Positions 350 to 19,517 of a stretch of 20,000 nucleotides of DNA are shown here, piece after piece. Each line of letters opens with the position of its first letter. Positions within the stretch are counted from its first letter, which is position 1. Origin of the DNA: Mobula hypostoma (Eukaryota); contig NW_026948141.1 in assembly GCF_963921235.1 (NCBI RefSeq), positions 235,061 through 255,060 on the forward strand, read 5' to 3'. The translations under genes were made by a program, and so were the position numbers. The notes under the pieces were generated by a model that worked only from the letters and a program-made list of their open reading frames with translations, searched no databases and was not told the origin of the DNA.

Positions 350-2364
350 TTTTTGTGTTAGCCATGGAGGTCATTGTGAGGGCTGCAGAATCAGTGGGAC
401 CAGGTGTCGCACTTGATGGCAGAGGGGAGTTACCACCAATATGAGCATTCATGGACGATTTCACCCTTTTGGGTCCCAGCAACGGAGGCAGTGGAAAATG
501 TACTATCTAGACTCGAGGAGCTAATGGATTGGGGAAGAATGAAGTTCAAGACCAAGAAGTCAAGGAGCCTTGTTCTTAGGAGAGGAAAGCTGGTTGACTT
601 TCATTTCACCCTTTGTGGAGAGGAGATTCCATCCATTCAGGACCAACCAGTTAAGAACCAGAGGAGCTGAGAGTCACCAAGAGGGTTCAAGAGACAGGAG
701 GACAGATCAGCAGAGGTCTGATGTCTGTTGACAAGCGTGGCTTGCCTGGCAAGTTGAAGTTGTGCTTGTAGTACAGACTGATGCCACAGATAATGTGGCC
801 ATTAACTGTCTGTGAAGTGGCAATGTCCCACGTTGAGGCAATGGAACGGAAGATCAACAAGTATGTGAAGAAGTGGCTTGGAGTACTGAGCAGCCTCACC
901 AATGTTGCAATCCACAATAGCCAGACAAAGCTTACCATCCCAGTGCAATCCCTTGTTGAGAAAGTCAAGGTAGCTAAGGTAAGATCATTCTTGATGCTTC
1001 GAGACTCAAAAGACCCTGTCATCAAGAACGCCCAGCCGGATGTGAGATCAGGCAGGAAGTGGTCAGCCCATGTAGCAGTTGATGAGGCAGAGTCTAGATT
1101 GAAGCACAAGGAGATGGTTGGGGCTACCCAGCTAAGCCGCCAGGGACTTGGATGGACAACCCACAAGTGGTGGTCATCTTCCACAGGTAAGGAGCTTGTA
1201 ACACAAGAAGTACGAGAGGTAGAAGAGGAGAAGAGGTTAGCTAAAACAGCTGGCCTGGCCAAACAAGGGGCTTGGACCTGGTGGGAAAGTGTTGAACAAC
1301 GACATCCATCTTGGAATGTTCTGTGGCAGATGGAACCACTCCGCATTTCTTTTCCACACAGAGCAATGTACGATCTGCTCCCAACACCTGCCAACCTCAG
1401 CACCTGGTATGAAGATAAGACAGACAGGTGTGCTGCTTGTGGCGAGAAGGGAAAATATTTTGAGTCCATGCAGAGTCAATCTTTCCAGTGGCATGTACAC
1501 TTGGAGACATAACAACGTTCTCAAAATTGTAACAGAAGTGGGTGAGCAGAGAGTACTTCAGCACAACTTATCTCATGCCCCATGCTGCACAGAACATCGC
1601 ATATCATTTGTGAAAGAAGGCTCCAAGTCAAGGGTGTACAGCGCAGGCTCACGATCAAGCATACTTTCCTCAGCCAATGATTGGTGTGTCAAGGCTGACC
1701 TGGATGGGAAAGGCAGTTTCCCGGAGCAAATAGCTTTCACCACATTGCGTCCAGATATAATCGTATGGTCTGACACCAGTAGAGAAGTGGTTATTGGTGA
1801 ACTCACAGTCCCCTGGGAAGACAACATCGATGAAGCCCATGAGCGCAAGTTAACCAAGTATGCAGAGTCAAGATCAGAGTGCAGAGACAGAGGGTGGAAG
1901 GTCTCATGCTATCCATTCGAAGTAGGCTGCCATGGGTTTATTGCGTTCACTTTCCAGAAGTGGCTGCGTGACCTTGGCTTCACTAGAAGAGAGATCAAGT
2001 CAACCAGCAGGGCTGTAGCTGAGGCAGCAGAGACAGGACCAGCATGGGTGTGGACCAAGTATGTCCAGAGGGGCAGAGAGTCGGACAGTGTATCCATCTT
2101 TTGCAAACCCTTCAGTAGTTGCATAGACACCTGAAGAGTAGACTATCTGTTGGATGGAAGCAACCAACAACTCTGATAGAGGCAGATGCCAAGTTTTTAA
2201 GCTCACCAGTGGGAGGTGGTGCTTTAGCACTGCTGATCCACCACCTCGAGGGAGCCTTGATCATAAGCGGGCCGAAACTCCTGAAGACAGGTGGCAGATC
2301 AACTGATGATCCCTCTGGTGATAGCACAGGACAGTTAACATCTTAGTCCACGTGTATTTTGTAA
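350..2364 (+). mobile_element. 5'-truncated non-LTR retrotransposon with restriction-like endonuclease (Hero/R2-group), including 3' UTR
   Basis: Domain order RT C-terminal half, zinc knuckle, then RLE. Starts abruptly inside RT (FVLAMEVIVRAA). About 230 nt of 3' UTR. Flanked on both sides by PLE-type sequence. Confidence 0.85.
352..2134 (+). pseudogene. Disrupted RT / Zn-knuckle / RLE polyprotein of the Hero-like element
   Basis: FMDD catalytic motif at 448-459, preceded by an in-frame TGA at 442-444. RMKFKTKKSRSLVL in ORF 404-670. KKWLG and YDLLPTPANL...CAACGEKG in ORF 781-1512. NILSPC...YTWRHN and RPDIIVW...ELTVPWE...KLTKY...PFEVGCHG in ORF 1289-2134. Several frameshifts; the His of the CCHC knuckle is lost at the ~1450 break. 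Confidence 0.85.
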
Positions 2365-4084: not shown

Positions 4085-5684
4085 ATAGAAAAACTACAGA
4101 ACCATAGAAACTGCAGCACAGAAACAGGCCCTTTGGCCCTTCTTGGCTGTGCCGAACCATTTTCTGCCTAGTCCCACTGACCTGCACACAGACCATATCC
4201 CTCCATACACCTCCCATCCATGTATCTGTCCAATTTATTCTTAAATGTTAAAAAAGAACCCGCATTTACCACCTCATCTGGCAGCTCATTCCATACTCCC
4301 ACCACTCTCTGTGTGAAGAAGCGCCCCCCCAATGTTCCCTTTAAACTTTTCCCCCCTCACCCTTAACCCATGTCCTCTGGTTTTTTTCTCCCCTTGCCTC
4401 AGTGGAAAAAGCCTGCTTGCATTCACTCTATCTATACCCATCATAATTTTATATACCTCTATCAAATCTCCCCTCATTCTTCTACGCTCCAGGGAATAAA
4501 GTCCTAACCTATTCAACCTTTCTCTGTAACTGAGTTTCTCAAGTCCCGGCAACATCCTTGTAAACCTTCTCTGCACTCTTTCAACCTTATTTATATCCTT
4601 CCTGTAATTTGGTGACCAAAACTGAACACAATACTCCAGATCCGGCCTCACCAGTGCCTTATACAACCTCATCATAACATTCCAGCTCTTATACTCAATA
4701 CTTCGATTAATAAAGGCCAATGTACCAAAAGCTCTCTTTACGACCCTATCTACCTGTGACGACACCTTTAGGGAATTTTGTATCTGTATTCCCAGATCCC
4801 TCTGTTCCACTGCACTCCTCAGTGCCTTACCATTAACCCTGTATGTTCTACCTTGGTTTGTCCTTCCAACGTGCAATACCTCACACTTGTCAGTATTAAA
4901 CTCCATCTGCCATTTTTCAGCCCAATTTTCCAGCTGGTCCAAGTCCCTCTGCAGGCTCTGAAAACCTTCCTCATTGTCTACTACACCTCCAATCTTTGTA
5001 TCATCAGCAAACTTGCTGATCCAATTTACCACATTATCATCCAGATCATTGATATAGATGACAAATAACAATGGACCCAGCACTGATCCCTGTGGCACAC
5101 CACTAGTCACAGGCCTCCACTCAGAGAAGCAATTCTCTACCACCACTCTCTGGCTTCTTCCATCGAGCCAATGTCCAATCCAATTTACCACCTCTTCATG
5201 TATACCTAGCGACTGAATTTTCCTAACTAACCTCCCATGCGGGACCTTGTCAAAGGCCTTACTGAAGTCCATGTAGACAATATCCACTGCCTTCCCTTCA
5301 TCCACTTTCCTGGTAACCTCCTTGAAAAACTCCAATAGATTGGTCAAACATGACCTACCATGCACAAAGCCATGTTGACTCTCCCTAATAAGCCCTTGTC
5401 TATCCAAATGCTTGTAGATTCTGTCTCTTAGTACTCCCTCCAATAACTTACCTACTACTGACGTTAAACTCACCGGCCTATAATTTCCCGGATTACTTTT
5501 CGATCCTTTTTTAAACAACGGAACAACATGAGCCACTCTCCAATCCTCCGGCACCCCACCTGTAGACAGCGACATTTTAAATATTTCTGCCAGGGCCCCC
5601 GCAATTTCAACACCAGTCTCCTTCAAGGTCCGAGGGAACACCCTGTCAGGTCCCGGGGATTTATCCACTTTAATTTTCCTCAAG
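4085..5684 (-). mobile_element. Young 5'-truncated CR1 LINE with 3' UTR and short-repeat tail
   Basis: Long RT ORF, 3' UTR at ~4110-4200 and a catagaa-type repeated tail at 4084-4110. Candidate target-site duplication ATAGA at 4085-4089 and 5685-5689. Confidence 0.93.
4286..5683 (-). pseudogene. CR1 ORF2 reverse transcriptase, N-terminally truncated (no endonuclease) with a C-terminal frameshift
   Basis: KSPGPD, NYRPVSLTS, QHGF, YMDFSKAFDKVPH, GVPQGSVLGP, KFADDTK and RRMRGDLIEVYK are all in one frame. The expected FFTQRVVGVWNELP continues in another frame after ~4325. There is no real start codon. Confidence 0.92.
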
Positions 5685-5771
5685 ATAGAGTAGAGTTGTC
5701 AAACATAAGTTGGAATCAAGACCAACACAACAGCATGAACCAAGTTGCCCATCCATTGCTGTTCTATTCTC

Positions 5772-8700
5772 CTACTTAAGCCGATTACCAGCAACAGCTC
5801 ACCACAGTCCTCTATCCTGGGCCGATTGAAGATTGATCAACCCCTGTGGGTTCTGATTTCACCACGTGACTTCATATGCCTTCCAGGCAAAGACCTTTTC
5901 TCTCCGAAGGATGAGATCTTTGGAGCTTCTGTTTCTGTTTCTGTAGCTCTGGGTTTTTACAGGATGGGGTTGCTAGTGCCATGTTCAACTCTCCTCCTTT
6001 CACAGCCGGGTTTGGGACTGTCCATGGGGAGTTCATACCCGTTCCTCCTCCTTTCACAGCCAGGTTTGGGACTGTCCATGGGGAGTTCATACCCAACCCT
6101 CCTCCTTTCACAGCCGGGTTTGGGACTGTCCTTGGGGAGTTCATACCCAACCATCCTCCTTTCACAGCCGGATTTGGGACTTTCCATGGGGAGTTCATAC
6201 CTGTTCCTCCTCCTTTCACAGCCGGGTTTGGGACTGTCCATGGGGAGTTCATACCCGACCCTTCTCCTTTCACAGCCGGGTTTGGGACTGTCCATGGGGA
6301 GTTCATACCCGTTCCTCCTCGTTTCACAGCCAGGTTTGGGACTGTCCATGGGGAGTTCATACCCGTTCCTCCTCCTGTCACAGCCAGGTTTGGGACTGTC
6401 CATGGGGAGTTCATACCCAACCCTCCTCCTTTCACAGCCAGGTTTGGGACTGTCCTTGGGGAGTTCATACCCAACCATCCTCCTTTCACAGCCGGATTTG
6501 GGACTTTCCATGGGGAGTTCATACCTGTTCCTCCTCCTTTCACAGCCGGGTTTGGGACTGTCCATGGGGAGTTCATACCCGACCCTTCTCCTTTCACAGC
6601 CAGGTTTGGGACTGTCCATGGGGAGTTCATACCCAACCCTCCTCCTTTCACAGCCAGGTTTGGGACTGTCCATGGGGTTCATACCCCCTCCTCCTTTCAC
6701 AGCCGGGTTTGGGACTGTTCATGGGGAGTTCATACCCAACCCTCCTCCTTTCACAGCCGGTTTGGACTGTAGGTCAGCCGTTTGGGACTCATGGGGAGTT
6801 CATACCCGTTCCTCCTCCTTTCACAGCCGGGTTTGGGACTGTCCATGGGGAGTTCATACCCAACCCTCCTCCTTTCACGTTCATACCCGTTCCTCCTCCT
6901 TTCACAGCCGGGTTTGGGACTGTCCATGGGGAGTTCATACCCAACCCTCCTCCTTTCACAGCCGGGTTTGGGACTGTCCATGGGGAGTTCATACCCAACC
7001 CTCCTCCTTTCACAGCCGGGTTTGGGACTGTCCATGGGGAGTTCATACCCAACCCTCCTCCTTTCACAGCCGGGTTTGGGACTGTCCATGGGGAGTTCAT
7101 ACCCAACCCTCCTCCTTTCACAGCCGGGTTTGGGACTGTCCATGGGGAGTTCATACCCGTTCCTCCTCCTTTCACAGCCGGGTTTGGGACTGTCCAGGGG
7201 AGTTCATACCCGTTCCTCCTCCTTTCACAGCCGGGTTTGGGACTGTCCATGGGGAGTTCATACCCAACCCTCCTCCTTTCACAGCCGGGTTTGGGACTGT
7301 CCATGGGGAGTTCATACCCAACCCTCCTCCTTTCACAGCCGGGTTTGGGACTGTCCATGGGGAGTTCATACCCAACCCTCCTCCTTTCACAGCCGGGTTT
7401 GGGACTGTCCATGGGGAGTTCATACCCAACCCTCCTCCTTTCACAGCCAGGTTTGGGACTGTCCATGGGGAGTTCATACCCGTTCCTCCTCCTTTCACAG
7501 CCGAGTTTGGGACTGTCGATGGGGAGTTCATACCCGTTCCTCCTCCTTTCACAGCCGGGTTTGGGACTGTCCATGGGGAGTTCATACCCGTTCCTCCTCC
7601 TTTCACAGCCAGGTTTGGGACTGTCCATGGGGAGTTCATACCCGTTCCTCCTCCTTTCACAGCCGGGTTTGGGACTGTCGATGGGGAGTTCATACCCGTT
7701 CCTCCTCCTTTCACAGCCGGGTTTGGGACTGTCCATGCAGAGTTCATACCCGTTCCTCCTCCTTTCACAGCCGGGTTTGGGACTGTCCATGGGGAGTTCA
7801 TACCCGTTCCTCCTCCTTTCACAGCCGGGTTTGGGACTGTCGATGGGGAGTTCATACCCGTTCCTCCTCCTTTCACAGCCGGGTTTGGGACTGTCCATGC
7901 GGAGTTCATACCCAACCCTCCTCCTTTCACAGCCAGGTTTGGGACTGTCCATGGGGAGTTCATACCCGTTCCTCCTCCTTTCACAGCCGTGTTTGTGACT
8001 GTCGATGGGGAGTTCATACCCGTTCCTCCTCCTTTCACAGCCGGGTTTGGGACTGTCCATGCGGAGTTCATACCCAACCCTCCTCCTTTCACAGCCGGGA
8101 TTGGGACTGTCCATGGGGAGTTCATACCCGTTCCTCCTCCTTTCACAGCCGGGTTTGGGACTGTCCATGGGGAGTTCATACCCAACTCTCCTCCTTTCAC
8201 AGCCGGGTTTGGGACTGTCCATGGGGAGTTCATACCCGTTCCTCCTCCTTTCACAGCCGGGTTTGGGACTGTCCATGGGGAGTTCATACCTGTTCCTCCT
8301 CCTTTCACAGCCGGGTTTGGGACTGTCCATGGGGAGTTCATACCCGTTCCTCCTCCTTTCACAGCCGGGTTTGGGACTGTCCATGGGGAGTTCATACCCG
8401 TTCCTCCTCCTTTCACAGCCGGGTTTGGGACTGTCGATGGGGAGTTCATACCCGTTCCTCCTCCTTTCACAGCCGGGTTTGGGACTGTCCATGCGGAGTT
8501 CATACCCAACCCTCCTCCTTTCACAGCCGGGTTTGGGACTGTCCATGGGGAGTTCATACCCGTTCCTCCTCCTTTCACAGCCGGGTTTGGGACTGTCCAT
8601 GGGGAGTTCATACCCGTTCCTCCTCCTTTCACAGCCGGGTTTGGGACTGTCCATGGGGAGTTCATACCCAACCCTCCTCCTTTCACAGCCGGATTTGGGA

Positions 8701-11700
8701 TTTTCCATGGGGAGTTCATACCTGTTCCTCCTCCTTTCACAGCCGGGTTTGGGTCTGTCCATGGGGAGTTCATACCCGACCCTTCTCCTTTCACAGCCAG
8801 GTTTGGGACTGTCCATGGGGAGTTCATACCCAAGCCTCCTCCTTTCACAGCCAGGTTTGGGACTGTCCATGGGGAGTTCATACCCAACCCTCCTCCTTTC
8901 ACAGCCGGGTTTGTGACTGTCCATGGGGAGTTCATACCCAACCCTCCTCCTTTCACAGCCGGGTTTGGGACTGTCCATGGGGAGTTCATACCCAACCCTC
9001 CTCCTTTCACAGCCGGGTTTGGGACTGTCCATGGGGAGTTCATACCCGTTCCTCCTCCTTTCACAGCCGGGTTTGGGACTGTCCATGGGGAGTTCATACC
9101 CGTTCCTCCTCCTTTCACAGCCGGGTTTGGGACTGTCCATGGGGAGTTCATACCCGTTCCTCCTCCTTTCACAGCCGGGTTTGGGACTGTCCATGGGGAG
9201 TTCATACCCAACCCTCCTCCTTTCACAGCCGGGTTTGGGACTGTCCATGGGGAGTTCATACCCAACCCTCCTCCTTTCACAGCCGGGTTTGGGACTGTCC
9301 ATGGGGAGTTCATACCCGTTCCTCCTCCTTTCACAGCCAGGTTTGGGACTGTCCATGGGGAGTTCATACCCGTTCCTCCTCCTTTCACAGCCGGGTTTGG
9401 GACTGTCGATGGGGAGTTCATACCCGTTCCTCCTCCTTTCACAGCCGGGTTTGGGACTGTCCATGCGGAGTTCATACCCGTTCCTCCTCCTTTCACAGCC
9501 GGGTTTGGGACTGTCCATGGGGAGTTCATACCCGTTCCTCCTCCTTTCACAGCCGGGTTTGGGACTGTCCATGCGGAGTTCATACCCAACCCTCCTCCTT
9601 TCACAGCCGGGTTTGGGACTGTCCATGGGGAGTTCATACCCGTTCCTCCTCCTTTCACAGCCGGGTTTGGGACTGTCCATGGGGAGTTCATACCCAACTC
9701 TCCTCCTTTCACAGCCGGGTTTGGGACTGTCCATGGGGAGTTCATACCCGTTCCTCCTCCTTTCACAGCCGGGTTTGGGACTGTCCATGGGGAGTTCATA
9801 CCTGTTCCTCCTCCTTTCACAGCCGGGTTTGGGACTGTCCATGGGGAGTTCATACCCGTTCCTCCTCCTTTCACAGCCGGGTTTGGGACTGTCCATGGGG
9901 AGTTCATACCCGTTCCTCCTCCTTTCACAGCCGGGTTTGGGACTGTCGATGGGGAGTTCATACCCGTTCCTCCTCCTTTCACAGCCGGGTTTGGGACTGT
10001 CCATGCGGAGTTCATACCCAACCCTCCTCCTTTCACAGCCGGGTTTGGGACTGTCCATGGGGAGTTCATACCCGTTCCTCCTCCTTTCACAGCCGGGTTT
10101 GGGACTGTCGATGGGGAGTTCATACCCGTTCCTCCTCCTTTCACAGCCGGGTTTGGGACTGTCCATGCGGAGTTCATACCCAACCCTCCTCCTTTCACAG
10201 CCGGGTTTGGGACTGTCCATGGGGAGTTCATACCCGTTCCTCCTCCTTTCACAGCCGGGTTTGGGACTGTCCATGGGGAGTTCATACCCAACTCTCCTCC
10301 TTTCACAGCCGGGTTTGGGACTGTCCATGGGGAGTTCATACCCGTTCCTCCTCCTTTCACAGCCGGGTTTGGGACTGTCCATGGGGAGTTCATACCTGTT
10401 CCTCCTCCTTTCACAGCCGGGTTTGGGACTGTCCATGGGGAGTTCATACCCGTTCCTCCTCCTTTCACAGCCGGGTTTGGGACTGTCCATGGGGAGTTCA
10501 TACCCGTTCCTCCTCCTTTCACAGTCAGGTTTGGGACTGTCCATGGGGAGTTCATACCCGTTCCTCCACCTTTCACAGCCGGGTTTGGGACTGTCGATGG
10601 GGAGTTCATACCCGTTCCTCCTCCTTTCACAGCCGGGTTTGGGACTGTCCATGCGGAGTTCATACCCGTTCCTCCTCCTTTCACAGCCGGGTTTGGGACT
10701 GTCCATGGGGAGTTCATACCCGTTCCTCCTCCTTTCACAGCCGGGTTTGGGACTGTCCATGGGGAGTTCATACCCGTTCCTCCTCCTTTCACAGCCGGGT
10801 TTGGGACTGTCCATGGGGAGTTCATACCCAACCCTCCTCCTTTCACAGCCGGGTTTGGGACTGTCCATGGGGAGTTCATACCCGTTCCTCCTCCTTTCAC
10901 AGCCGGGTTTGGGACTGTCCATGGGGAGTTCATACCCGTTCCTCCTCCTTTCACAGCCGGGTTTGGGACTGTCCATGGGGAGTTCATACCCAACCCTCCT
11001 CCTTTCACAGCTGGGTTTGGGACTGTCCATGGGGAGTTCATACCCAACCCTCCTCCTTTCACAGCCGGGTTTGGGACTGTCCATGGGGAGTTCATACCCG
11101 TTCCTCCTCCTTTCACAGCCGAGTTTGGGACTGTCCATGTGGAGTTCATACCCAACCCTCCTCCTTTCACAGCTGGGTTTGGGACTGTCCATGGGGAGTT
11201 CATACCCAACCCTCCTCCTTTCACAGCCGGGTTTGGGACTGTCCATGGGGAGTTCATACCCAACTCTCCTCCTTTCACAGCCGGGTTTGGGACTGTCCAT
11301 GGGGAGTTCATACCCGTTCCTCCTCCTTTCACAGCCGAGTTTGGGACTGTCCATGTGGGAGTTCTATCCGTTCATACCCAACCCTCCTCCTTTCACAGCT
11401 GGGTTTGGGACTGTCCATGGGGAGTTCATACCCAACCCTCCTCCTTTCACAGCCGGGTTTGGGACTGTCCATGGGGAGTTCATACCAAACCCTCCTCCTT
11501 TCACAGCCGGGTTTGGGACTGTCCATGGGGAGTTCATACCCGTTCCTCCTCCTTTCACAGCCGGGTTTGGGACTGTCCATGTGGAGTTCATACACGTTCC
11601 TCCTCCTTTCACAGCTGGGTTTGGGACTGTCCATGGGGAGTTCATACCCAACCCTCCTCCTTTCACAGCCGGGTTTGGGACTGTCCATGGGGAGTTCATA

Positions 11701-14700
11701 CCCAACGATCCTCCTTTCACAGCCGGGTTTGGGACTGTCCATGCGGAGTTCATACCCGTTCCTCCTCGTTTCACAGCCGGGTTTGGGACTGTCCATGGGG
11801 AGTTCATACCCGTTCCTCTTCCTTTCACAGCCGGGTTTGGGACTGTCCATGGGGAGTTCATACCCAACCCTCCTCCTTTCACAGCCGGGTTTGGGACTGT
11901 CCATGGGGAGTTCATACCCGTTCCTCCTCCTTTCACAGCCGGGTTTGGGACTGTCCACGGGGAGTTCATACCCGTTCCTCCTCCTTTCACAGCCGGGTTT
12001 GGGACTGTCCATGGGGAGTTCATACCCAACCTTCCTCCTTTCACAGCCGGGTTTGGGACTGTCCATGGGGAGTTCATACCCAACCCTCCTCCTTTCACAG
12101 CCGGGTTTGGGACTGTCCATGGGGAGTTCATACCCGTTCCTCCTCCTTTCACAGCCGGGTTTGGGACTGTCCATGGGGAGTTCATACCCGTTCCTCCTCC
12201 TTTCACAGCCGGGTTTGGGACTGTCGATGGGGAGTTCATACCCGTTCCTCCTCCTTTCACAGCCGGGTTTGGGACTGTCCATGCGGAGTTCATACCCGTT
12301 CCTCCTCCTTTCACAGCCGGGTTTGGGACTGTCCATGGGGAGTTCATACCCGTTCCTCCTCCTTTCACAGCCGGGTTTGGGACTGTCGATGGGGAGTTCA
12401 TACCCGTTCCTCCTCCTTTCACAGCCGGGTTTGGGACTGTCCATGCGGAGTTCATACCCAACCCTCCTCCTTTCACAGCCGGGTTTGGGACTGTCCATGG
12501 GGAGTTCATACCCGTTCCTCCTCCTTTCACAGCCGGGTTTGGGACTGTCCATGGGGAGTTCATACCCAACTCTCCTCCTTTCACAGCCGGGTTTGGGACT
12601 GTCCATGGGGAGTTCATACCCGTTCCTCCTCCTTTCACAGCCGGGTTTGGGACTGTCCATGGGGAGTTCATACCTGTTCCTCCTCCTTTCACAGCCGGGT
12701 TTGGGACTGTCCGTGGGGAGTTCATACCCGTTCCTCCTCCTTTCACAGCCGGGTTTGGGACTGTCCATGGGGAGTTCATACCCGTTCCTCCTCCTTTCAC
12801 AGCCGGGTTTGGGACTGTCGATGGGGAGTTCATACCCGTTCTGCCTCCTTTCACAGCCGGGTTTGGGACTGTCCATGCGGAGTTCATACCCAACCCTCCT
12901 CCTTTCACAGCCGGGTTTGGGACTGTCCATGGGGAGTTCATACCCGTTCCTCCTCCTTTCACAGCCGGGTTTGGGACTGTCGATGGGGAGTTCATACCCG
13001 TTCCTCCTCCTTTCACAGCCGGGTTTGGGACTGTCCATGCGGAGTTCATACCCAACCCTCCTCCTTTCACAGCCGGGTTTGGGACTGTCCATGGGGAGTT
13101 CATACCCGTTCCTCCTCCTTTCACAGCCGGGTTTGGGACTGTCCATGGGGAGTTCATACCTGTTCCTCCTCCTTTCACAGCCGGGTTTGGGACTGTCGAT
13201 GGGGAGTTCATACCCGTTCCTCCTCCTTTCACAGCCGGGTTTGTGACTGTCCATGCGGAGTTCATACCCAACCCTCCTCCTTTCACAGCCGGGTTTGGGA
13301 CTGTCCATGGGGAGTTCATACCCGTTCCTCCTCCTTTCACAGCCGGGTTTGGGACTGTCCATGGGGAGTTCATACCCAACTCTCCTCCTTTCACAGCCGG
13401 GTTTGGGACTGTCCATGGGGAGTTCATACCCGTTCCTCCTCCTTTCACAGCCGGGTTTGGGACTGTCCATGGGGAGTTCATACCTGTTCCTCCTCCTTTC
13501 ACAGCCGGGTTTGGGACTGTCCATGGGGAGTTCATACCCGTTCCTCCTCCTTTCACAGCCGGGTTTGGGACTGTCCATGGGGAGTTCATACCCGTTCCTC
13601 CTCCTTTCACAGCCAGGTTTGGGACTGTCCATGGGGAGTTCATACCCGTTCCTCCTCCTTTCACAGCCGGGTTTGGGACTGTCGATGGGGAGTTCATACC
13701 CAACTCTCCTCCTTTCACAGCCAGGTTTGGGACTGTCCTTGGGGAGTTCATACCCGTTCCTCCTCCTTTCACAGCCGGGTTTGGGACTGTCCATGGGGAG
13801 TTCATACCCAACCCTCCTCCTTTCACAGCCGGGTTTGGGACTGTCCATGGGGAGTTCATACCCAACTCTCCTCCTTTCACAGCCGGGTTTGGGACTGTCC
13901 ATGGGGAGTTCATACCCAACCCTCCTCCTTTCACAGCCGGGTTTGGGACTGTCCTTGGGGAGTTCATACCCGTTCCTCCTCCTTTCACAGCCGGGTTTGG
14001 GACTGTCCATGCGGAGTTCATACCCGTTCCTCCTCCTTTCACAGCCGGGTTTGGGACTGTCCATGGGGAGTTCATACCCGTTCCTCCTCCTTTCACAGCC
14101 GGGGTGGGACTGTCGATGGGGAGTTCATACCCGTTCCTCCTCCTTTCACAGCTGGGTTTGGGACTGTCCATGCGGAGTTCATACCCAACCCTCCTCCTTT
14201 CACAGCCGGGTTTGGGACTTTCCATGGGGAGTTCATACCCGTTCCTCCTCCTTTCACAGCGGAGTTTGGGACTGTCCATGGGGAGTTCATACCCGTTCCT
14301 CCGCCTTTCACAGCCGGGTTTGGGACTGTCCATGGGGAGTTCATACCCAACCCTACTCCTTTCACAGCTGGGTTTGGGACTGTCCATGGGGAGTTCATAC
14401 CCGTTCCTCCTCCTTTCACAGCCGGGTTTGGGACTGTCCATGGGGAGTTCATACCCGTTCCTCCTCCTTTCACAGCCGAGTTTGGGACTGTCCATGTGGA
14501 GTTCATACACGTTCCTCCTCCTTTCACAGCTGGGTTTGGGACTATCCATGGGGAGTTCATACCCAACCCTCCTCCTTTCACAGCTGGGTTTGGGACTGTC
14601 CATGGGGAGTTCATACCCAACCCTCCTCCTTTCACAGCCGGGTTTGGGACTGTCCATGGGGAGTTCATACCAAACCCTCCTCCTTTCACAGCCGGGTTTG

Positions 14701-17700
14701 GGACTGTCCATGGGGAGTTCATACCCGTTCCTCCTCCTTTCACAGCCGGGTTTGGGACTGTCCATGTGGAGTTCATACACGTTCCTCCTCCTTTCACAGC
14801 TGGGTTTGGGACTGTCCATGGGGAGTTCATACCCAACCCTCCTCCTTTCACAGCTGGGTTTGGGACTGTCCATGGGGAGTTCATACCCAACGATCCTCCT
14901 TTCACAGCCGGGTTTGGGACTGTCCATGCGGAGTTCATACCCGTTCCTCCTCGTTTCACAGCCGGGTTTGGGACTGTCCATGGGGAGTTCATACCCGTTC
15001 CTCTTCCTTTCACAGCCGGCTTTGGGACTGTCCATGGGGAGTTCATACCCAACCCTCCTCCTTTCACAGCTCGGTTTGGGACTGTCCATGGGGAGTTCAT
15101 ACCCAACCCTCCACCTTTCACAGCCGGGTTTGGGACTGTCCATGGGGAGTTCATACCCGTTCCTCCTCCTTTCACAGCCGGGTTTGGGACTGTCCATGGG
15201 GAGTTCATACCCGTTCCTCCTCCTTTCACAGCCGGGTTTGGGACTGTCCATGGGGAGTTCATACCCAACCCTCCTCCTTTCACAGCCGGGTTTGGGACTG
15301 TCCATGGGGAGTTCATACCCGTTCCTCCTCCTTTCACAGCCGGGTTTGGGACTGTCCATGGGGAGTTCATACCCAACTCTCCTCCTTTCACAGCCGGGTT
15401 TGGGACTGTCCATGGGGAGTTCATACCCGTTCCTCCTCCTTTCACAGCCGGGTTTGGGACTGTCCATGGGGAGTTCATACCTGTTCCTCCTCCTTTCACA
15501 GCCGGGTTTGGGACTGTCCGTGGGGAGTTCATACCCGTTCCTCCTCCTTTCACAGCCGGGTTTGGGACTGTCCATGGGGAGTTCATACCCGTTCCTCCTC
15601 CTTTCACAGCCGGGTTTGGGACTGTCGATGGGGAGTTCATACCCGTTCTGCCTCCTTTCACAGCCGGGTTTGGGACTGTCCATGGGGAGTTCATACCCAA
15701 CCCTCCTCCTTTCACAGCCGGGTTTGGGACTGTCCATGGGGAGTTCATACCCGTTCCTCCTCCTTTCACAGCCGGGTTTGGGACTGTCCATGCGGAGTTC
15801 ATACCCGTTCCTCCTCCTTTCACAGCCGGGTTTGGGACTGTCCATGGGGAGTTCATACCCGTTCCTCCTCCTTTCACAGCCGGGTTTGGGACTGTCATGG
15901 GGAGTTCATACCCGTTCCTCCTCCTTTCACAGCCGGGTTTGGGACTGTCCATGCGGAGTTCATACCCAACCCTCCTCCTTTCACAGCCGGGTTTGGGACT
16001 GTCCATGGGGAGTTCATACCCGTTCCTCCTCCTTTCACAGCCGGGTTTGGGACTGTCCATGGGGAGTTCATACCCAACTCCTCCTCCTTTCACAGCCGGG
16101 TTTGGGACTGTCCATGGGGAGTTCATACCCGTTCCTCCTCCTTTCACAGCCGGGTTTGGGACTGTCCATGGGGAGTTCATACCCGTTCCTCCTCCTTTCA
16201 CAGCCGGGTTTGGGACTGTCCATGGGGAGTTCATACCCGTTCCTCCTCCTTTCACAGCCGGGTTTGGGACTGTCCATGGGGAGTTCATACCCGTTCCTCC
16301 TCCTTTCACAGCCGGGTTTGGGACTGTCCATGGGGAGTTCATACCCGTTCCTCCTCCTTTCACAGCCGGGTTTGGGACTGTCCATGGGGAGTTCATACCC
16401 AACCCTCCTCCTTTCACAGCCGGGTTTGGGACTGTCCATGGGGAGTTCATACCCGTTCCTCCTCCTTTCACAGCCGGGTTTGGGACTGTCCATGGGGAGT
16501 TCATACCCGTTCCTCCTCCTTTCACAGCCGGGTTTGGGACTGTCCATGGGGAGTTCATACCCAACCCTCCTCCTTTCACAGCCGGGTTTGGGACTGTCCA
16601 TGGGGAGTTCATACCCGTTCCTCCTCCTTTCACAGCCGGGTTTGGGACTGTCCATGGGGAGTTCATACCCGTTCCTCCTCCTTTCACAGCCGGGTTTGGG
16701 ACTGTCGATGGGGAGTTCATACCCGTTCCTCCTCCTTTCACAGCCGGGTTTGGGACTGTCCATGGGGAGTTCATACCCGTTCCTCCTCCTTTCACAGCCG
16801 GGTTTGGGACTGTCCATGGGGAGTTCATACCCGTTCCTCCTCCTTTCACAGCCGGGTTTGGGACTGTCCATGGGGAGTTCATACCCAACTCCTCCTCCTT
16901 TCACAGCCGGGTTTGGGACTGTCCATGGGGAGTTCATACCCGTTCCTCCTCCTTTCACAGCCGGGTTTGGGACTGTCCATGGGGAGTTCATACCCGTTCC
17001 TCCTCCTTTCACAGCCGGGTTTGGGACTGTCCATGGGGAGTTCATACCCGTTCCTCCTCCTTTCACAGCCGGGTTTGGGACTGTCCATGGGGAGTTCATA
17101 CCCGTTCCTCCTCCTTTCACAGCCGGGTTTGGGACTGTCCATGGGGAGTTCATACCCGTTCCTCCTCCTTTCACAGCCGGGTTTGGGACTGTCCATGGGG
17201 AGTTCATACCCAACTCTCCTCCTTTCACAGCCGGGTTTGGGACTGTCCATGGGGAGTTCATACCCGTTCCTCCTCCTTTCACAGCCGGGTTTGGGACTGT
17301 CCATGGGGAGTTCATACCCAACCCTCCTCCTTTCACAGCCGGGTTTGGGACTGTCCATGGGGAGTTCATACCCAACCCTCCTCCTTTCACAGCCGGGTTT
17401 GGGACTGTCCATGGGGAGTTCATACCCAACCCTCCTCCTTTCACAGCCGGGTTTGGGACTGTCCATGGGGAGTTCATACCCGTTCCTCCTCCTTTCACAG
17501 CCGGGTTTGGGACTGTCCATGGGGAGTTCATACCCGTTCCTCCTCCTTTCACAGCCGGGTTTGGGACTGTCCATGGGGAGTTCATACCCGTTCCTCCTCC
17601 TTTCACAGCCGGGTTTGGGACTGTCCATGGGGAGTTCATACCCGTTCCTCCTCCTTTCACAGCCGGGTTTGGGACTGTCCATGGGGAGTTCATACCCAAC

Positions 17701-19477
17701 CCTCCTCCTTTCACAGCCGGGTTTGGGACTGTCCATGGGGAGTTCATACCCGTTCCTCCTCCTTTCACAGCCGGGTTTGGGACTGTCCATGGGGAGTTCA
17801 TACCCGTTCCTCCTCCTTTCACAGCCGGGTTTGGGACTGTCCATGGGGAGTTCATACCCGTTCCTCCTCCTTTCACAGCCGGGTTTGGGACTGTCCATGG
17901 GGAGTTCATACCCAACTCTCCTCCTTTCACAGCCGGGTTAGTGACTGTCCATGGGGAGTTCATACACGTTCCTCCTCCTTTCACAGCCGGGTTTGGGACT
18001 GTCCATGGGGAGTTCATACCCGTTCCTCCTCCTTTCACAGCCGGGTTTGGGACTGTCCATGGGGAGTTCATACCCGTTCCTCCTCCTTTCACAGCCGGGT
18101 TTGGGACTGTCCATGGGGAGTTCATACCCATCCCTCCTCCTTTCACAGCCGGGTTTGGGACTGTCCATGGGGAGTTCATACCCGTTCCTCCTCCTTTCAC
18201 AGCCGGGTTTGGGACTGTCCATGGGGAGTTCATACCCGTTCCTCCTCCTTTCACAGCCGGGTTTGGGACTGTCCATGGGGAGTTCATACCCGTTCCTCCT
18301 CCTTTCACAGCCGGGTTTGGGACTGTCCATGGGGAGTTCATACCCGTTCCTCCTCCTTTCACAGCCGGGTTTGGGACTGTCCATGGGGAGTTCATACCCG
18401 TTCCTCCTCCTTTCACAGCCGGGTTTGGGACTGTCCATGGGGAGTTCATACCCGTTCCTCCTCCTTTCACAGCCGGGTTTGGGACTGTCCATGGGGAGTT
18501 CATACCCGTTCCTCCTCCTTTCACAGCCGGGTTTGGGACTGTCCATGGGGAGTTCATACCCGTTCCTCCTCCTTTCACAGCCGGGTTTGGGACTGTCCAT
18601 GGGGAGTTCATATCCCAACGTTCCTCCTCCTTTCACAGCCGGGTTTGGGACTGTCCATGGGGAGTTCATACCCAACCCTCCTCCTTTCACAGCCGGGTTT
18701 GGGACTGTCCATGGGGAGTTCATACCCGTTCCTCCTCCTTTCACAGCCGGGTTTGGGACTGTCCATGGGGAGTTCATACCCGTTCCTCCTCCTTTCACAG
18801 CCGGGTTTGGGACTGTCCATGGGGAGTTCATACCCGTTCCTCCTCCTTTCACAGCCGGGTTTGGGACTGTCCATGGGGAGTTCATACCCGTTCCTCCTCC
18901 TTTCACAGCCGGGTTTGGGACTGTCCATGGGGAGTTCATACCCGTTCCTCCTCCTTTCACAGCCGGGTTTGGGACTGTCCATGGGGAGTTCATACCCGTT
19001 CCTCCTCCTTTCACAGCCGGGTTTGGGACTGTCCATGGGGAGTTCATACCCAACCCTCCTCCTTTCACAGCCGGGTTTGGGACTGTCCATGGGGAGTTCA
19101 TACCCGTTCCTCCTCCTTTCACAGCCGGGTTTGGGACTGTCCATGGGGAGTTCATACCCGTTCCTCCTCCTTTCACAGCCGGGTTTGGGACTGTCCATGG
19201 GGAGTTCATACCCGTTCCTCCTCCTTTCACAGCCGGGTTTGGGACTGTCCATGGGGAGTTCATACCCGTTCCTCCTCCTTTCACAGCCGGGTTTGGGACT
19301 GTCCATGGGGAGTTCATACCCGTTCCTCCTCCTTTCACAGCCGGGTTTGGGACTGTCCATGGGGAGTTCATACCCAACCCTCCTCCTTTCACAGCCGGGT
19401 TTGGGACTGTCCATGGGGAGTTCATACCCGTTCCTCCTCCTTTCACAGCCGGGTTTGGGACTGTCCATGCTGGAGTT
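5772..19477 (-). mobile_element. Short non-autonomous bipartite RTE-derived element (5' UTR head fused to 3' tail) whose first 54 nt are tandemly amplified
   Basis: Downstream of the array on the minus strand: catggcactagcaaccccatcctgtaaaaacccagagctac (resembles RTE 5' UTR), then ggcccaggatagaggactgtggtgagctgttg (AQDRGLW, resembles RTE ORF C-terminus), then gcttaagtag (TAAG-type tail). Family assignment is from recall. Confidence 0.65.
5980..19477. repeat. 54-bp tandem array (minisatellite/satellite), about 250 copies, 13.5 kb
   Basis: Unit cataccc(gtt/aac)cctcctcctttcacagccgggtttgggactgtccatggggagtt. First unit 5980-6033, last unit 19423-19477. 13498 bp divided by 54 is about 250. Confidence 0.99.
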
Positions 19478-19485
19478 ACTGTTGC
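19423..19485 (-). ncRNA. Twister ribozyme-like sequence (terminal copy; all array units are homologous), degenerate
   Basis: Minus strand UAA-CUCC-AGC-AUGG-ACAG-UCCCAAAC-CCGG-CUGUGAAA-GGAG-GAGG, compared with the rice twister as recalled, UAA-CACU-GCC-AAUG-CCGG-UCCCAAGC-CCGG-AUAAA-AGUG-GAGG. P2 covaries (CUCC/GGAG). T2 and P4 are damaged. Confidence 0.7.
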
Positions 19486-19517
19486 TGTATGTTCTATGTG
19501 AAACTTGGAGGAATGAT

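Follow-up and report, generated by a model that had tools for sequence, protein, structure and literature searches.

A 54-nt minisatellite derived from the twister-P1 head of an RTE-type retroposon and phased at the predicted ribozyme cut site

The 13.5-kb minisatellite in the window (the whole 20,000-nt stretch of DNA analysed here) is the multiplied head of one bipartite RTE-type retroposon of about 260 nt, the body of which runs from 5979 to about 5770. Each unit begins at the base that follows the predicted cleavage site of a type-P1 twister ribozyme, and this phase suggests, short of proof, that the retrotransposition machinery made the first duplication. The features of the locus, all read on the minus strand, are listed from the 5′ flank to the 3′ flank of the element.

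19479..19497, minus strand: candidate target-site duplication (TSD), 5′ copy, decayed, with a 4-nt indel, ending at −2 (anchored alignment).
19477..19478, minus strand: predicted twister scissile bond between U−1 (19478, flank or untemplated) and A+1 (19477), which is the 5′ end of the retroposon (RF03160 alignment; ends of dispersed copies; kin conserved from +1 only).
19423..19477, minus strand: terminal (outer) head, 55 nt, AGC at +7..+9, 21.6 bits against a gathering score of 67.2, predicted inactive.
5980..19422, minus strand: about 247 further heads, mostly 54 nt, with the seam ...GGGTATG/AACTCC and degenerate twister-P1 cores of 18-23 bits (TRF period 54).
5980..6033, minus strand: last (inner) head, 54 nt, ending in CATG (family position +55) and continuous with the element body (sequence reading).
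5855..5979, minus strand: rest of the RTE-type 5′ UTR and first codons of the LINE ORF, opening with a hairpin whose 5′ arm holds the +55/+56 breakpoint (L005 alignment).
5768..5830, minus strand: LINE-like 3′ end with a decayed TAAG-type tail (family depth at 5791-5829, single-copy level below 5778).
5753..5767, minus strand: candidate TSD, 3′ copy (anchored alignment).

TRF assigned a period of 54 nt and 249.8 copies to the whole array (5991-19477), from which 248 units could be parsed, 236 of them 54 nt long. Across the outer edge, the minus strand reads from the flank ...CAGT into AACTCC AGC ATGG. The first-pass annotation, made from the letters alone, had described the array as ending sharply at 19477 with a minus strand opening AACTCC. 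The final array base is indeed 19477, but the edge is sharp only approximately: full identity to an internal unit ends at 19469, past which the match is confined to the 6-nt block 19472-19477. In the terminal unit, AGC replaces the CC that stands at this site in 222 of the 248 units, so that this unit measures 55 nt and loses full identity at 19469; its length may be that of the family, retained, or may reflect a later 1-nt insertion. The annotation was correct in placing U/AA in the terminal copy alone, since the array together with base 19478 contains a single TAACTC, at 19477, and ATG directly precedes 246 of the 253 AACTC motifs. Its reading of the inner edge also held: the last unit (6033-5980, 54 nt) finishes with CATG and is followed by non-repeated sequence of the element body. 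Both edges carry private letters, namely AGC in the outer head and CATG plus a GG-to-AA change in the inner head.

Within the array (5980-19477), the main dimorphism of the unit lies at +45..+47, where AAC and its 3-nt reverse complement GTT both occur, GTT being present at +45/+46 in 79 of 236 units. GTT is the family state at these positions, and one 58-nt unit near 18610 holds both GTT and AAC. We rejected the idea that the AAC variant was copied from the flank, which is out of register and offers nothing in support. The array is disturbed near its inner edge (6625-6960), where partial units of 27, 51, 70 and 81 nt were found. A scan for viral contigs gave 0 matches.

No Rfam family matched the window at gathering level. 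When filters were relaxed, the array units matched twister-P1 (RF03160) with the low scores listed above, short of the gathering threshold. In this alignment, Infernal placed 19478 at the U and 19477 at the first A of the twister-P1 UAA, and the twister cut has been placed at the U-A of this UAA in the available text of Liu et al. 2021 (PMC8501958). The earlier proposal that the phase of the seam corresponds to the twister scissile bond is supported by these two placements. The heads of related elements scored 38-51 bits against the same model in 8 of 9 loci, and intact kin without P3 also remained under the gathering threshold.

The non-repeated sequence identifies the host element. Over the 210 nt that follow the array, the sequence can be aligned with the 5′ UTR of L005, a metagenome element, as far as the ATG that opens the L005 ORF, and this ORF matches the APE-type endonuclease families PF03372 and PF14529. 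Beyond an internal deletion, the sequence resembles a LINE 3′ end and closes, near 5779-5768, with a TAAG-type tail that has decayed. Alignment of the 3′ part with the 3′ end of a mini-element (L022) was weak, its score of 24 equalling the best of 30 shuffles. Among the contig matches listed, joints that skip 85-114 nt represent shorter versions of the same element. We take the element to be putatively of RTE type from its resemblance to Perere-3, not from a tree, and regard its 3′ part as a candidate RTE 3′ end. Bipartite RTE derivatives composed of 5′ and 3′ ends are already known (Kojima 2018, PMC5786205, available text).

The candidate TSD pair has 11 identities and a 4-nt gap, and 89 of 3107 random pairs were as good (p≈0.03), which makes it no more than suggestive. 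Because this candidate TSD ends at −2, the T at −1 would be either a flank base or an untemplated base, and the same arrangement of TSD and −1 base was found at the metagenome locus L021. The 3′ part of the locus with its flank was recovered from sequencing run X5 (205 nt, 7 differences), and the 3′ flank was covered in run X10, indicating that the insertion is older than the split of these species labels.

A hairpin lies directly after the twister (5963-5982, minus strand, +53..+71; columns 63-81 of alignment A1) and is conserved in RTE-type 5′ UTRs. In the kin, two-sided changes were found at 3 of 6 pairs and 83% of cells were paired, the latter measure being reached in 105 of 500 whole-structure shuffles; this covariation would lend modest support to the predicted hairpin. 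Covariation of P4 and T1 in the same alignment was discarded as circular, the search pattern having fixed those letters, and the downstream hairpin is the sole free test. An explanation of the unit end at +55 by a start codon was also rejected: a 36-codon frame opens at 5982, but the kin have GTG and there was no Pfam match.

Two further retroelements were observed in the window. A decayed non-LTR element occupies 380-2134 (plus strand) in several frames with no Pfam match, and a motif near its end is presumably of the restriction-like endonuclease type. An open reverse transcriptase frame of 470 aa (4286-5698, minus strand; PF00078, 1e-36), which we take to be CR1-like, is 5′-truncated near the 3′ flank of the retroposon.

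To locate the 5′ ends of dispersed copies, contigs of 4 of the 23 sequencing runs were aligned to 5700-6065 at 80% likeness; X1, X5 and X10 are DNA runs, and the fourth, X16, is presumably an RNA run. Among the best 24 of 838 loose-end rows, the largest loose end lay behind 6027, the place homologous to the array start, with 251 of 3708 contigs in X1, 222 of 3414 in X5 and 259 of 3900 in X10, totals that include contigs never reaching the head. The consensus at this loose end reads CGGAGTT, then A, then AT-rich letters, with an agreement of 0.43-0.45 over 30 letters, indicating about seven shared letters followed by unrelated flanks. The annotation had expected the 5′ ends of dispersed copies to pile up at AACTCC, and 222-259 contigs per DNA run leave the reference at the start of the head. 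It had also named the observation that would speak against it, copies sharing sequence well upstream of AACTCC including this flank. Instead, homology was lost just upstream, the flank of this locus was not shared by dispersed copies, and invertebrate kin behaved likewise.

The family head thus starts with AACTCC-GCC-ATGG, extends 55 nt to CATG and has no common upstream sequence. Some 250 contigs per run give GCC as their consensus here, and an L4 with AAGC was seen, among the matches listed, in a 6-contig loose end of X10. Dispersed copies start at the predicted cut and their flanks are unrelated to one another, the cut itself being deduced from the family. The annotation had defined the unit as the first 54 nt of a ribozyme-processed transcript; this stands for its start, which is at once the element's 5′ end and the twister cut site, but the unit is the 55-nt family head minus one base.

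The kin support the same boundary. They comprised 25 metagenome loci, 23 of which had enough upstream DNA; a short head was present in 15, and a subset of 11 was non-redundant and had flanks of 20 nt or more. Across this subset, the commonest letter accounted for 27-55% at −12..−1 and for 73-100% at +1..+12, where +1..+9 are conserved partly by the filter used. Candidate TSDs of 8-10 nt were present in 5 of the 15 short-head loci and were convincing in L022 and L021/L024. L022:1330-1550 and L021:360-735 are short twister-headed elements on invertebrate-type metagenome contigs with 10-nt TSDs beside the predicted cut, and the L022 element is about 175 nt long with a TAAG tail.

At the seam, element position +55 (ATG) abuts +1 (AAC); no flank letters stand between them, and microhomology is absent (T versus G on the left, A versus G on the right). 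The annotation had seen no microhomology at either junction, and we also found no letter common across the seam on either side. According to a model calculation, zero microhomology is expected about 56% of the time for a random blunt join, so its absence is uninformative with respect to blunt joining. In similar calculations, a random 55-nt duplication would start at +1 in 1 of 206 placements within the element, or in 1 of 10 if the duplication must hold the whole twister core that made the array noticeable. Under random duplication, the +1 start of the unit would therefore be expected in 0.5-10% of cases, a coincidence that is real but moderate. The tetranucleotide AACA occurs in register at −6..−3 in the 5′ flank (19480-19483) and in the end of the last unit (5982-5985); internal seams keep the family GG. 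It was rejected as a slippage microhomology, the seam it predicts differing from the observed one at 5 of 7 letters, and the shared AACA looks like a later coincidence.

The same seam was found outside the assembled array. Among the matches listed (best 15 of 66 joint rows), all joints that go back to an earlier position fit this seam and none fit another phase. The seam is present in X5 and X10 too, indicating that the array or its seed is old. Several seam variants of X1, X5 and X10 were absent from this array, so the seam also exists elsewhere, or else on another haplotype or in an unassembled part. In one X5 contig (depth 49, near single copy; a related species), CATG is joined directly to a diverged head that keeps GCC. 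The first letters of this second head match the family-type head at 13 of 17 positions (p≈1e-5) and the array unit at 5 of 17, and both derived marks of this array are missing from it. Because the +55 break is common to both, the simplest reading is descent from one double-headed founder; the contig may also record an independent event at a hot spot, or the edge of an orthologous array. The annotation had suggested looking for other loci with a same-phase duplication of the head: this X5 contig (+55/+1) may be one. Speaking against a general pattern, among the 25 metagenome loci none had a second head, nor a second twister 3′ motif in the DNA fetched.

Three further observations concern related junctions. 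At the metagenome locus L007:499-582, a 29-nt direct repeat (19 nt of flank and 10 nt of twister head), with copies 55 nt apart, spans +1 out of phase and likewise speaks against a general pattern. The filler between the copies holds a short head fragment, and the junction is a rearranged 5′ junction of a twister-headed element. A 51-nt unit variant (5993-6040) reached a depth of 508 in X10, where single-copy depth is about 15, indicating that the X10 species amplified a different unit with the same seam. High depth at 6038-6065 was discarded as proof of many arrays, as short single-head contigs can sit in either unit.

We then considered whether the units could still cut. The A+1, the A+2, P2 (CUCC/GGAG) and the general-base G in GAG are present in most units, as judged from the alignment and unit counts. 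P1 is dispensable and all four bases, G among them, are tolerated at −1 (PMC11662667), and the seam recurs in runs X5 and X10. These observations would fit a functional self-processing ribozyme satellite in which the terminal U/AA copy or the internal copies still cut, a reading that we nevertheless consider very improbable. The T2 pseudoknot, formed by GC at +7,+8 and GC in L4, is intact in no unit: its 5′ strand is CC in 222 of 248 units and GC in just 20, and L4 has AAC in 241 of 246, with CCCAAAC in 239 units and CCCAAGC in 0. At the T1 pseudoknot (CCC with GGG), GAGGG is kept in 63 of 246 units and GAGGA stands in 159, the terminal unit included. Any change at the equivalent G30 lowers activity below 0.2 (PMC5113685, available text). 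The scores of 18-23 bits, compared with 38-51 in 8 of 9 kin loci, point the same way. Folding z-scores of the units (minimum free energy) were near 0, which says little against activity, an intact kin head being near 0 too, so that this test does not separate dead from intact heads. With T2 broken on both strands, the array units are predicted to be unable to cut. The annotation had treated the terminal U as the mark of a canonical copy. The U is real, but because every base at −1 is tolerated it says nothing about activity, and the 11 kin carry T4, C3, G2 and A2 at this position.

The growth to about 250 copies left a different kind of record. Of 389 differences from the consensus in 54-nt units, 370 were common to at least two units, and repeated blocks held up to 4 rare unit types, compared with at most 2 in 200 shuffles. 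Because variants are shared and blocky, we conclude that the copies arose through iterative exchange at the DNA level and not in one rolling-circle run. Rolling-circle reverse transcription of a circularised 54/55-nt head fragment, which the annotation had offered as an origin of the seed duplication and which could in a retrozyme-like manner have made the seed or the array, has precedents: metazoan retrozymes are hammerhead tandem repeats with expressed circles, proposed to spread by reverse transcription of these circles (PMC7229834, available text), and a dimer with two active heads, once it existed, could release unit-length RNA. We give this origin hardly any credence. Besides the shared and blocky variation, no second cut site exists at +55 of a monomer, the array runs on into an ordinary LINE-like 3′ end and its tail, and L4 with AAGC occurs in 0 units, any change at the equivalent G30 leaving activity below 0.2 (PMC5113685). 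Known retrozyme units also measure 150-450 bp in the available text of PMC7229834.

Any process that puts the ribozyme-defined end onto +55 explains the phase of the seam outright. On balance, we favour an origin in which the machinery of retrotransposition attached a 5′ end cut by the ribozyme onto +55 of a different head, with subsequent expansion by DNA-level exchange. The type-P1 twister with which a short bipartite RTE-type retroposon begins would free the transcript, every copy starting at A+1, and on one occasion a free +1 end would have been joined to +55 of another head to give a head-head-body form. The single likeliest route, put forward tentatively, is a restart or jump of the polymerase during one insertion. 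The reverse transcriptase would run off or stall and jump to an RNA template at its 5′ end, or the polymerase would start again from the cDNA 3′ end while the 5′ junction is made; the stop point may be given by the hairpin at +53..+71, which could be a stall site in this second variant. Template jumping, as the annotation had proposed for the seed, is a reasonable route, and the same seam could result from re-priming at the cDNA end or from nested insertion. Nested insertion of one copy in the head of another, followed by collapse or by re-mobilisation from the outer ribozyme, appears unlikely as the actual route; model calculations gave 0.02 to 28 expected nested insertions for assumed copy numbers of 2,000-50,000. 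What is left of our confidence in a machinery-made seam falls to mixed routes. In its double-headed form the element probably reached more than one locus. At this locus the heads then grew to about 250 by unequal exchange and slippage in DNA, as the shared variants show, and the ribozyme decayed, all units being predicted inactive. Related events are known from R2, where about 20 nt of 28S-derived sequence stand three times over at one 5′ junction, tandem duplications match the predicted cut site in length, and a dead inner cut site lets the duplication propagate in the proposed model (Eickbush et al. 2013, PMC3774820, available text).

The main competitor to this machinery-made seam is a chance tandem duplication at the DNA level after insertion, by staggered nicks and end joining or by slippage, that happened to start at the first base, which would make the array an ordinary retroposon-derived satellite. 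Such satellites are common and have many phases in reptiles (PMC10702118, available text), the phase costs only 1 in 10 once the whole core is required, a blunt join lacks microhomology 56% of the time, and the L007 duplication over a twister junction is out of phase. The weak candidate TSD of the insertion (p≈0.03) was also counted against a machinery-made seam. We nevertheless judge chance duplication the less probable of the two, a possibility of about half the weight: the phase costs 1 in 206 if the duplication may be placed anywhere in the element, the listed joints that go back (best 15 of 66 rows) share one seam, and X5 has a diverged seam in the same phase. For slippage in particular, microhomology is needed, and the internal seams are at odds with the in-register AACA. 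The case for a seam made by the retrotransposition machinery is essentially that of one event, with the X5 contig as a single record.

A more general version of the preferred origin would be that the reverse transcriptase of RTE elements recurrently copies the ribozyme-cut 5′ end of its RNA anew, as far as the hairpin at +53..+71, generating fixed-phase head duplications, double-headed elements and satellites of pure ribozyme cores. We consider this doubtful at present. If true, recurrent re-copying would be a path by which the ribozyme heads of LINEs turn into ribozyme satellites, seen here once the ribozyme had died. A recurrent phase would also document the way in which non-LTR elements complete their 5′ ends, the step of insertion that is understood least, and would offer an origin for ribozyme-bearing satellites. 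If there was a single seed, the array is a neat fossil and little more.

Several parts of this picture are already known, namely RTE 5′ ends cut by a twister (Perere-3), bipartite derivatives of RTE elements and retroposon-derived satellites. A satellite with a twister-head unit phased on the cut site was not found in the open-access literature; copies from fish may be listed among the supplementary T-variants of PMC8501958. The closest relative is the T-variant twister of Perere-3 (RTE clade, Schistosoma mansoni; PMC8501958, available text). As in our element, a type-P1 twister stands at the LINE 5′ end, copies start at the AA of the cut, −1 and the 5′ strand of P1 come from the flank or TSD, and the tail is of the GTAA/TAAG type. 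In contrast to Perere-3, the element described here is a derivative shortened by internal deletion and situated in a vertebrate-like genome, with a head that lacks P3 and is multiplied about 250 times; the passages of that paper that use the word tandem describe no duplication of the head. RTESINE1/2, WALLSI3, MAR4 and Bov-A (PMC5786205, available text) and the R2 SIDEs (as cited in PMC3774820) also join LINE 5′ and 3′ ends with the ORF deleted and the ribozyme head kept. Bov-A2 is a dimer of the whole unit (PMC5786205), whereas only the first 55 nt were multiplied here.

Non-LTR retrozymes (Cervera and de la Pena 2020, PMC7229834, available text) are, like this array, genomic tandem repeats each with a self-cleaving motif. 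They contain active type I hammerheads in units of 150-450 bp and are expressed as circles, whereas the present array has a twister in a 54-nt unit that is predicted to be dead and an attached LINE-like 3′ end. An active ribozyme in each unit defines retrozymes, and T2 is broken in all units of this array. R2 5′ junction duplications (PMC3774820, available text) resemble it in being tandem repeats at a 5′ junction with a length that follows the ribozyme cut; they consist of 13-28 nt of the 28S target, mostly from upstream cleavage, whereas 55 nt of the element's own head were duplicated here. In the sSats of squamates (Vassetzky et al. 2023, PMC10702118, available text), the array likewise grew in place from part of a retroposon, the remainder of which stands at the array end, and the present array agrees with this type (four or more tandem units), its units stemming from one part of a short retroposon whose other part lies next to them. 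The sSat units are various internal or terminal segments of tRNA-headed SINEs, whereas the boundary of the unit described here is the ribozyme-defined 5′ end of the element.
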